Of a DNA stretch of 64,000 bases, positions 45,069-48,328 are shown in pieces. Every line of letters begins with the position of its first letter. The stretch's first letter is position 1. The notes beneath the pieces were generated by a model, which was not told the origin of the DNA, made no database searches, and saw nothing but the letters and a program-made list of their open reading frames with translations. Made by a program: the position numbers and the translations under genes. The DNA comes from Escherichia coli (lineage in GTDB: Bacteria > Pseudomonadota > Gammaproteobacteria > Enterobacterales > Enterobacteriaceae), in NCBI RefSeq assembly GCF_001677475.2, contig NZ_CP015229.1; one strand, 5' to 3'.

Positions 45069-45118
45069 GAATCTGCGTCTTTGGTGTTGAGATCTCTCAA
45101 CGCGAAACATATGCGTAC

Positions 45119-45145
45119 AGGAGCCGAAAATGAATTTCGGCTCCT
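45119..45145. terminator. Hairpin between convergent ssb and the 193-aa orphan ORF
   Basis: aggagccgaaaatgaatttcggctcct; no strong U-tract. Confidence 0.5.
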
Positions 45146-45179
45146 GAAATAGTCAAGGATTGTTCCTCTCATTAATTTA

Positions 45180-45761
45180 TTATTCCGGGTTATACAAAAT
45201 ATTCAGTTTTGCACCTTGTACCAGTTTATATTCTTTATACTCTCTTTCTACTTCATGTCGCTCGGCTTTGTTTAACTGTGTGGTCAATTTTCTAAGGTTT
45301 TCAACAACAATAGCCATATTTAATTCTTCAGGAAGCGATCTTGTTTCACTCCATTTTTTTCCGTGTAAAAACCCGCCATGGTCTATATTAAAATGGGTTT
45401 CCTCTACACTGAATATTATTTTTGTGCCTAGCCCATCTTGTCTGATGGATACAGTTTGGCGTAAATAATCATTTTGAGAAATAAAATTTATATCTTTGGG
45501 GGTTCCATCAATATTGGACTCGAAAGAGGTTACTTCTGCCATGAGTTTAGATACTCGCTGAGAATTAAACTCGACTTTCCCATGCGTGATGAAATGAATA
45601 AGATCCTTCAAGAGATTTGTAAAACCATCAATCTTTTTATAAATAACTGCGTTTAATTTTGATGAATTTGCAAATTTTTTATCTGCTTTAACCAGGTCAT
45701 TCTGAAATTGCTCCAGTGTTATTTTATTTTGAGTTCCTATATTATTATTATATATCGTCAT
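45180..45761 (-). CDS. Hypothetical 193-aa protein, AT-rich orphan ORF convergent with ssb
   Basis: Strong RBS (aaaggagaagatcATG); no stops over 582 bp in AT-rich DNA; soluble, charged, no recognisable motif (MTIYNNNIGTQNKITLEQFQNDLVKADKKF...). Confidence 0.6.
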   Translation of the reverse strand: MTIYNNNIGTQNKITLEQFQNDLVKADKKFANSSKLNAVIYKKIDGFTNLLKDLIHFITHGKVEFNSQRVSKLMAEVTSFESNIDGTPKDINFISQNDYLRQTVSIRQDGLGTKIIFSVEETHFNIDHGGFLHGKKWSETRSLPEELNMAIVVENLRKLTTQLNKAERHEVEREYKEYKLVQGAKLNILYNPE

Positions 45762-46032
45762 GATCTTCTCCTTTATAATTTATTGAGAACATTACGTTGG
45801 ACGTTAGGTAGTACAATTTATTTGTTTTCATCCTAGCCTTAATCAAATTTTGAACTATCAAAAATTGCTCATTTGTATAAAATTCAGCAAGGAGGTGGCG
45901 AAGATAGTGAAGATGCTAAGCGTACAACACCTTCAAGCGTTGATTAAAAGAAAGTGCGATATGTGATGATAGGGCGGCCGAGGAAGCTATTCATCGACCG
46001 CTTGTGAAGGGATAAAAGTCAAGAAAGTGAAA

Positions 46033-46314
46033 TCAGGTCAAAATCATTGGCCATTGTGGCGGTGTCTGATTCATCTCTTCAATCATCACCGACTCGATGT
46101 TGTGCCAGATGGCGGTGATATCCGCCATTGTGATGCCAAGCAACCCCATTGCGAACCAGCAGGCGGAAACCACGCCCAGACCGCTGCTGATCACTGCAAG
46201 CCCGACATAATCAGACCGACGAAAACGGATGTTGAGCGTGCTGGCCAGAAACATCATTACGGCACTAAGAAGTTGCCAGCGAAGAAGAACCACGCCAGTG
46301 GTGAGGGTAGCCAT
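46033..46314 (-). CDS. yjcB: Small inner-membrane protein YjcB
   Basis: 93 aa from MATLTTGVVLLRWQLLSAVMMFLASTLNIRF, two predicted TM segments; RBS gagg. The track ORF is extended upstream. Confidence 0.75.
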   Translation of the reverse strand: MATLTTGVVLLRWQLLSAVMMFLASTLNIRFRRSDYVGLAVISSGLGVVSACWFAMGLLGITMADITAIWHNIESVMIEEMNQTPPQWPMILT

Positions 46315-46774
46315 CAAACAATTCCTCTGAAAAGAGCCGATGCCCTGGACAGCGCGGCGTTGTTCACGGGAGGCGTGGTACACTCTGGCTATCGCGGGGC
46401 TTGCAGGACACAAAAATGAAACACTCTGTTTGTTTCATTAATTTTGTGAACTATATCACAATTGATTGTTTGTTAGCCAGATTAGGCCGTGACTTTTATT
46501 GCTGTACAGATTATGTGGTTTTTCAGTGGCATTAAGGGCATATCTTCCCGCCGCCTCTGCATTCCTGTAGAAAATTAATTTGAATATCAATCAATTATTT
46601 TTATCCAGGTGACCATTAAAAAGGTATCAATTTCAAATCAGGCAAAAGTGCTATTTATACCGTAAGATTTATCTAAAGACGTCGGTAGTCAGGGTTTCAC
46701 CTTGCAATGACCGGGTATAAACAGGCAGGAAATTGATAGCAATGAGTCATCATGCATGACACCAATTACTGGCG

Positions 46775-48328
46775 TTGCCGGGCATTATCTTTTTAGTTCT
46801 CTTTCCCATCATTCTGTCGCTATGGATTGCCTTCCTTTGGGCAAAATCAGAAGTGAATAGTCAGCTCCAAACTTTTGCTCAACTGGCACTGGATAAATCC
46901 GAGCTGGTCATTCGCCAGGCAGATTTAGTGAGCGATGCTGCTGAACGCTATCAGGGGCAAGTTTGCACTCCAGCCCATCAAAAGCGAATGTTGAATATTA
47001 TTCGTGGCTATCTTTATATTAATGAATTGATCTATGCCCGTGATAACCATTTTTTATGCTCATCGCTGATAGCGCCTGTAAACGGCTATACGATTGCACC
47101 GGCCGATTATAAGCGTGAACCTAACGTTTCTATCTATTATTACCGCGATACGCCTTTTTTCTCTGGCTATAAAATGACCTATATGCAGCGGGGAAATTAT
47201 GTGGCGGTCATCAACCCTCTCTTCTGGAGTGAAGTGATGTCTGATGATCCGACATTGCAATGGGGTGTGTATGATACGGTAACGAAAACCTTTTTCTCGT
47301 TAAGCAACGAGGCCTCGGCAGCAACGTTTTCTCCGCTGATTCATTTGAATGATTTAACCGTACAAAGAAATGGCTATTTATATGCGACAGTTTATTCGAC
47401 AAAACGCCCAATTGCAGCCATTGTTGCGACTTCATATCAACGTCTTATAGCCCATTTTTATAATCATCTTATTTTTGCGTTACCCGCCGGTATTTTGGGG
47501 AGTCTTGTTCTGCTATTACTCTGGCTACGTATTCGACAAAACTATTTGTCTCCCAAACGTAAATTGCAACGCGCCCTCGAAAAACATCAACTTTGTCTTT
47601 ATTACCAGCCAATAATCGATATCAAAACAGAAAAATGTACTGGCGCTGAAGCGTTGTTACGTTGGCCTGGTGAGCAGGGGCAAGTAATGAATCCGGCAGA
47701 GTTTATTCCGCTGGCAGAAAAGGAGGGGATGATAGAACAGGTAACTGATTATGTTATTGATAATGTCTTCCGCGATCTGGGCGCGTACCTGGCAACACAT
47801 ACCGATCGCTATGTTTCTATTAACCTGTCGGCCTCCGATTTTCATACGTCACGGTTGATAGCGCGAATCAATCAGAAAACAGAGCAACATGCGGTGCGCC
47901 CGCAGCAAATTAAATTTGAAGTGACTGAACATGCATTTCTTGATGTCGACAAAATGACGCCGATTATTCTGGCTTTCCGCCAGGCTGGTTACGAAGTGGC
48001 AATTGATGATTTTGGTATTGGCTACTCTAACTTGCATAACCTTAAATCATTGAATGTCGATATTTTGAAAATCGATAAATCGTTTGTTGAGACGCTGACC
48101 ACCCATAAAACCAGTCATTTGATTGCGGAACATATCATCGAGCTGGCGCACAGCCTGGGATTAAAAACGATCGCTGAAGGCGTCGAAACTGAGGAACAGG
48201 TTAACTGGCTGCGCAAACGCGGCGTGCGCTATTGCCAGGGATGGTTCTTTGCGAAGGCGATGCCGCCGCAGGTGTTTATGCAATGGATGGAGCAATTACC
48301 CGCGCGGGAGTTAACGCGCGGGCAATAA
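46775..48328 (+). CDS. pdeC: Membrane-anchored c-di-GMP phosphodiesterase (CSS-motif sensor plus EAL domain), PdeC/YjcC-like
   Basis: N-terminal TM anchor, periplasmic CSS domain, second TM, C-terminal EAL domain (EALLRWP...[10 protein letters not shown]). Start is the track's TTG; an in-frame ATG at 46742 is followed by TGA at 46757. Confidence 0.85.

Follow-up and report, generated by a model that had tools for sequence, protein, structure and literature searches.

The window analysed here is a 64,000-nt stretch of the Escherichia coli contig NZ_CP015229.1 (RefSeq assembly GCF_001677475.2). In it, pdeC (yjcC), whose product is a membrane-bound, redox-controlled c-di-GMP phosphodiesterase, sits between yjcB and the convergent soxS gene, followed by soxR, matching the gene order of K-12. 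The features of the locus are the following:

46722..46730, plus strand: Shine-Dalgarno-like element CAGGCAGGA, with an anti-SD duplex of -6.5 kcal/mol, 11 nt before the ATG at 46742; identical in K-12 and VCSW7
46742..46744, plus strand: ancestral pdeC start ATG, homologous to the annotated K-12 start (528-aa PdeC); Met1 is invariant in 20 orthologues
46756..46860, plus strand: out-of-frame ORF of 34 codons, whose ATG is made by the same C>T change as the premature stop and overlaps that stop as ATGA; K-12 has GCACGAC at this place and no ATG
46757..46759, plus strand: premature stop TGA in place of Arg6 (CGA), from C>T at 46757; the following base is C (UGA-C)
46775..48328, plus strand: what is left of the pdeC reading frame, open from TTG through to the usual stop (517 codons) and encoding every domain intact; the TTG is Leu12 of the full protein
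46778..46840, plus strand: TM1, an uncleaved N-terminal membrane anchor, residues 13-33 (hydropathy windows; PMC5897775 for K-12)
46859..47470, plus strand: periplasmic CSS domain (Pfam PF12792, residues 29-232 of the 517-aa ORF, E 4.8e-52)
47558..48256, plus strand: cytoplasmic EAL phosphodiesterase domain (Pfam PF00563, residues 262-494 of the 517-aa ORF, E 2e-70)

Numbered as in the 528-aa protein, the sequence has Cys75, the Cys106-Ser-Ser motif and the EAL motif at position 303 (GAEALLRW), and hydropathy analysis revealed hydrophobic peaks at ~9-33 and 240-262, corresponding to two transmembrane segments that flank the CSS domain. In PdeC of K-12, the first of these was shown to stay uncleaved as an integral part of the protein and to act as a topogenic segment (PMC5897775). 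The gene thus harbours the characteristic traits of a PdeC orthologue, namely a CSS domain with two conserved cysteines, a catalytic EAL domain, two transmembrane segments and the yjcB-pdeC-soxS-soxR locus. The trait that it lacks is an uninterrupted frame from the conserved start of the family, which is broken by the TGA at codon 6.

The neighbourhood also harbours an insertion of ~870 bp between ssb and yjcB (45069-46032). It contains a 193-aa ORF on the minus strand (45180-45761), MTIYNNNIGTQNK..., for which no Pfam, PADLOC, PHROG or NCBIfam match was obtained. This ORF is present in 22 of 5,426 complete E. coli genomes, with 97.8% identity in one of them (GF4-3, from guinea fowl), 90.8% in another and 86.5-87.9% in the remaining 20. 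Strain NDM6 carries Avs4 and an AbiGi-family gene upstream of yjcB, which makes the ssb-yjcB junction a candidate hotspot; the cargo of such a hotspot may be variable and possibly defence-related.

From position 46742, the codons of the window are ATG AGT CAT CAT GCA TGA CAC CAA TTA CTG GCG TTG CCG, and in this strain the ATG opens only a five-codon mini-ORF, MSHHA. An earlier note on this DNA had described an in-frame ATG at 46742, a TGA as its sixth codon (46757-46759) and an ORF resuming from TTG 46775, and every coordinate proved exact. Its expectation that the K-12 protein begins at the upstream ATG agrees with the MG1655 annotation, in which the 1587-nt pdeC gene (528 aa) opens with the homologous ATG and has CGA as its sixth codon. 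The closest complete genome, VCSW7, which is 99.0% identical over 401 bp at the pdeC start, also has CGA at codon 6. In the alignment, the TGA of the window is separated from the CGA of K-12 and VCSW7 by a single C>T transition at 46757, and the in-frame stop falls where intact orthologues and the nearest relatives (K-12, VCSW7 and the two sister contigs L007 and L008 described below) have a sense codon. The comparison with K-12 and other strains therefore bears out the N-terminal nonsense change that the note had suspected in this strain: the TGA is not found in K-12, CGA is present in K-12, VCSW7 and a sister strain, and the tail containing Arg6 is conserved across genera.

Two other differences were observed in this region. 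The R4H substitution (CGT to CAT, 46752-46754), common to the window and VCSW7, creates another ATG in a different frame, which opens a 14-codon ORF shortly before the nonsense codon. In the leader, at 46694, the window reads GGGTTTCACC and K-12, VCSW7, L007 and L008 read GGGTTTTCACC, with one T more; the E. coli sequence L006 also has three Ts, and the site is polymorphic. A promoter scan of positions 46300-46900 gave no sigma-70 consensus match and a single hairpin, around the TTG (CTGGC-GTT-GCCGG, 46769-46781), which is at chance level (0.8 expected).

We aligned 20 orthologues from about ten enterobacterial genera (overall identity 59-98%), including four further Escherichia species or clades, Citrobacter, Salmonella, Enterobacter, Kosakonia, Leclercia, Yokenella, Scandinavium, Pseudescherichia and others, to establish which start codon is genuine. 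The short N-terminal tail is found in all 20, with Met1 and Leu10 invariant and Arg6 present in 18 of them. Residue 12, encoded by the TTG in the window, is Leu in the Escherichia orthologues and Phe, Val, Ile, Leu or Gly elsewhere, and it is Phe (TTT) in the B2-type E. coli L006. The anti-SD duplex computed before TTG 46775 reaches only -1.5 kcal/mol. Functional work on PdeC numbers its residues consistently with the 528-aa form and hence with the ATG start (PMC5897775). The conservation of the tail, the position of the Shine-Dalgarno element and the variability of residue 12 identify the upstream ATG as the genuine start of pdeC; TTG 46775 does not serve as an alternative in nature. That the TTG should be the real pdeC start in all E. 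coli, the upstream ATG being an annotation artefact and the TGA harmless, is highly improbable. We found no N-terminal sequencing of PdeC in the literature examined, but the amino acids of the 11-codon tail are conserved between genera whose proteins share 60-67% identity overall, codon 12 of L006 is not a start codon, and the Shine-Dalgarno element precedes the ATG and not the TTG.

The distribution of the TGA allele was analysed among the 5,426 complete RefSeq E. coli genomes using a 55-mer centred on the T, such that each 28-base megablast word had to include that base. This search identified no true carrier among these genomes. Its sole match, NDM6, was rejected as a second carrier, since it reflects a 4-bp deletion in a region where the neighbouring genes are all annotated as frameshifted. 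In this genome (NZ_CP083869.1), labelled 'complete' in RefSeq, the frameshift annotation extends to yjcB, pdeC, soxS and soxR and is probably due to uncorrected long-read indel errors. A control 55-mer with C matched 4,241 genomes of the same set; the unmatched genomes probably carry nearby variants that break the seed, as in the B2-type L006 (CGT at codon 4 and TTT at codon 12). Rebuilding the T query on a K-12/B2 background yielded zero matches among the complete genomes. The lineage of the window has no close complete relative, its best match being 98.8% identical over 6.9 kb.

Sixteen contigs on record encode the very same 517-aa product. Two representatives, one from SRR25942434 (seen in 8 samples) and one from a different run, ERR3309126, match the window with 100% identity over 7,554 nt, TGA included. 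A single-base substitution is the commonest type of sequencing error, and the allele is unique with respect to the 5,426 complete genomes. However, the same base with 100% identical 7.5-kb flanks is found in independent assemblies, from SRR25942434 and seven other samples and from ERR3309126. Because independent runs share the T with identical flanks, we reject a sequencing or assembly error in a strain that really has CGA as next to impossible.

The restored protein, consisting of MSHHARHQLLAL followed by the same 516 residues, also exists, as MBS9132792.1 of the sister strain GCA_018428245.1 and on a Logan contig. L007, the contig of MBS9132792.1, and the other sister contig, L008, have CGA at codon 6 together with the same rare 193-aa insertion; within pdeC, two sites separate them from the window, namely 46757, where they have C, and a synonymous site (47641). 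As the protein of the sister strain is otherwise identical, CGA is ancestral for this very allele; the direction of the change is from C to T, and the TGA is confined to one clone. L007 and the window differ by 79 substitutions over 21.6 kb (0.37% divergence), and the nonsense change can be considered recent relative to this divergence of the two sub-lineages. The 1.55-kb pdeC frame harbours no second disabling change, which also led us to read the mutation as recent. Elsewhere in the window, about 40 substitutions relative to L007 are clustered in 650 bp (55376-56019), over a background of approximately one per 500 bp. This dense patch falls within the gene of a sodium:solute symporter of the SSF family and resembles a short tract of recombination.

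With regard to translation, ribosomes would start at ATG 46742, which has its own Shine-Dalgarno element, make MSHHA and terminate at the TGA. Most of them would then be lost from the pdeC frame, being either recycled or restarted at the wrong-frame ATG of the ATGA overlap, and the rest of pdeC, though intact, would be translated poorly or not at all. Its untranslated 1.5-kb body would be open to Rho-dependent polarity. Residual protein might arise by insertion of Trp at the leaky UGA, giving full-length PdeC with an R6W substitution, or, if ribosomes restart weakly at UUG 46775, as a 517-aa protein devoid of the 11-residue cytoplasmic tail. In native E. coli gene pairs, a gap of +14 nt cuts re-initiation by 40-80%, with strong variation from gene to gene, and the -4 overlap (ATGA) is the commonest spacing of neighbouring genes (PMC10666635).

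Because the TTG lacks a Shine-Dalgarno element, stands beyond a 15-nt gap and has a competing overlapping ATG in another frame, the evidence favours inactivation or strong knock-down over re-initiation at the TTG, the note having left both outcomes open; sequence alone cannot decide between them. We thus consider, with a probability of about 0.72, that the clone carries a recent, clone-specific nonsense mutation in pdeC that causes the loss or a strong reduction of PdeC. The fully intact downstream frame fits a young pseudogene and equally fits a gene still used via the TTG.

The latter situation would imply that re-initiation or de novo initiation at UUG 46775 keeps the gene functional, yielding sufficient amounts of a 517-aa PdeC that lacks residues 1-11 and retains TM1, CSS, TM2 and EAL. 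The in-frame UUG lies 15 nt past the stop, and all the downstream parts are intact. Internal restarts after early nonsense mutations are classical in lacI, including one at a Leu UUG codon. At gaps such as these 15 nt, the extent of re-initiation in E. coli differs from one gene to another, and re-initiation across 14-15 nt persists in some gene pairs (PMC10666635). TM2 has a strongly positive cytoplasmic flank, and TM2 with the EAL domain inserts correctly without TM1 (PMC5897775), so the topology might survive the loss of the tail. Nevertheless, UUG is a weak initiator without Shine-Dalgarno complementarity at this site, and the ATGA created by the mutation is a better-placed restart in the wrong frame, whose ribosomes would cross the UUG. 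The deleted tail includes Arg6, which is nearly invariant and, in this lineage, the principal positive charge ahead of TM1, and the UUG is not conserved, since B2 E. coli have Phe12 and other genera other residues. The locus thus offers an in-frame initiator shortly after the stop, and neither a Shine-Dalgarno element nor an overlap in the correct frame. Altogether, we regard a functional gene restarted at the UUG as unlikely.

Production of full-length PdeC(R6W) would require tRNA-Trp to read through the TGA often enough, and a rise of this process in cold or starvation would make expression condition-dependent. The C that follows the stop reportedly makes a poor termination context, as Poole et al. 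are said to have described in 1995. TGA, the leakiest stop codon of E. coli, is mostly decoded as Trp, and the read-through of premature TGAs in K-12 attains the per-cent range, with more at low temperature or upon nutrient depletion (PMC11126739). Residual activity of this kind could suffice physiologically for a weakly expressed protein. However, usual read-through amounts to a few per cent at best, and the high values come from K-12, in which RF2 is unusually weak (PMC11126739), while the strain of the window is wild. We found no stimulatory structure downstream of the TGA (fold z-score of -0.17 relative to shuffled sequence) and no suppressor tRNA within the window. The ancestral codon is a plain Arg codon, and nothing suggests selection for recoding. 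We therefore consider read-through at a sufficient level to be quite improbable. Selenocysteine insertion or another programmed recoding was also rejected, given that the UGA is confined to one clone, that CGA is ancestral and that the fold z-score is -0.17.

A more elaborate proposal is that the clone turned PdeC into a conditional enzyme, with read-through (Trp6), UUG12 restart or both rising in cold or starvation, the nonsense codon acting as a translational dimmer for which selection took place in a successful clone. If this were true, PdeC would be made mainly under the conditions in which curli and cellulose biofilms are built. We deem such a scenario very improbable.

Under the favoured loss or strong reduction of PdeC, the effect on the strain would be small. 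A delta-pdeC mutant of K-12 AR3110 forms slightly larger and flatter macrocolonies with more matrix in the deeper layers and unchanged CsgD (PMC5897775), and by analogy a mild shift is expected, with the deep layers of the biofilm richer in curli and cellulose matrix. The codon-6 stop of pdeC does not reveal a new mechanism, and its value is mainly practical. With it, the variable c-di-GMP network of E. coli gains a further disabling allele of natural origin. The TGA strain and its CGA sister form a nearly isogenic pair supplied by nature, in which PdeC function and restart or read-through at an early UGA can be tested. Pipelines that accept the 517-aa ORF from the TTG would report a seemingly normal PdeC in spite of the stop at codon 6.

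Cimdins-Ahne et al. (2023, PMC10459773) reported point mutations of natural origin in yjcC/pdeC of commensal and uropathogenic E. coli, which lower phosphodiesterase activity or eliminate it. The published alleles include C1552T, a stop that removes the last 11 residues, and a frameshift at 1433, and they were discussed in relation to stronger rdar biofilm expression (PMC10459773). The database cluster also contains C-terminal frameshift forms of 523, 573 and 496 aa. The 517-aa proteins P0003, P0004, P0008, P0011, P0013 and P0015 were rejected as instances of the N-terminal form, as all of them begin with MSHRARHQLLAF and are truncated at the other end, the C-terminus (...MQWMG). The same is seen in L006 (GCA_018158615.1, 3001-4554), another 517-aa form of PdeC with a normal N-terminus, MSHRARHQLLAF..., CGA at codon 6 and the ending ...MQWMG. 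This form is probably B2-type, and it appears to be the published C1552T variant of reduced activity. The TTG-ORF and the C-terminal truncation are both 517 aa long by coincidence, which may mislead comparisons based on length.

Compared with K-12 PdeC (Herbst et al. 2018, PMC5897775), the gene of the window is orthologous and at the same locus, with 96.5% nucleotide identity over the 401-bp start region, the same TM1-CSS-TM2-EAL layout and conservation of Cys75, Cys106 and the EAL motif. In contrast with K-12, its codon 6 is a stop, so that normal decoding cannot yield the 528-aa protein, and its lineage also has R4H. The geometry of the site, an early stop followed by an in-frame UUG within 15 nt, resembles that of the lacI restart proteins and of termination-reinitiation coupling (PMC10666635), so that a restart product without the N-terminus is conceivable. 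The pdeC site, however, lacks a Shine-Dalgarno element, and its best-placed restart (ATGA) is out of frame. As for the alleles of PMC10459773, the change is a natural point mutation in the same gene, a C>T that makes a stop, but it affects codon 6 whereas theirs lie at the C-terminus. The codon-6 stop is thus an ordinary strain-specific nonsense allele, which represents a new position for a known kind of pdeC variation.
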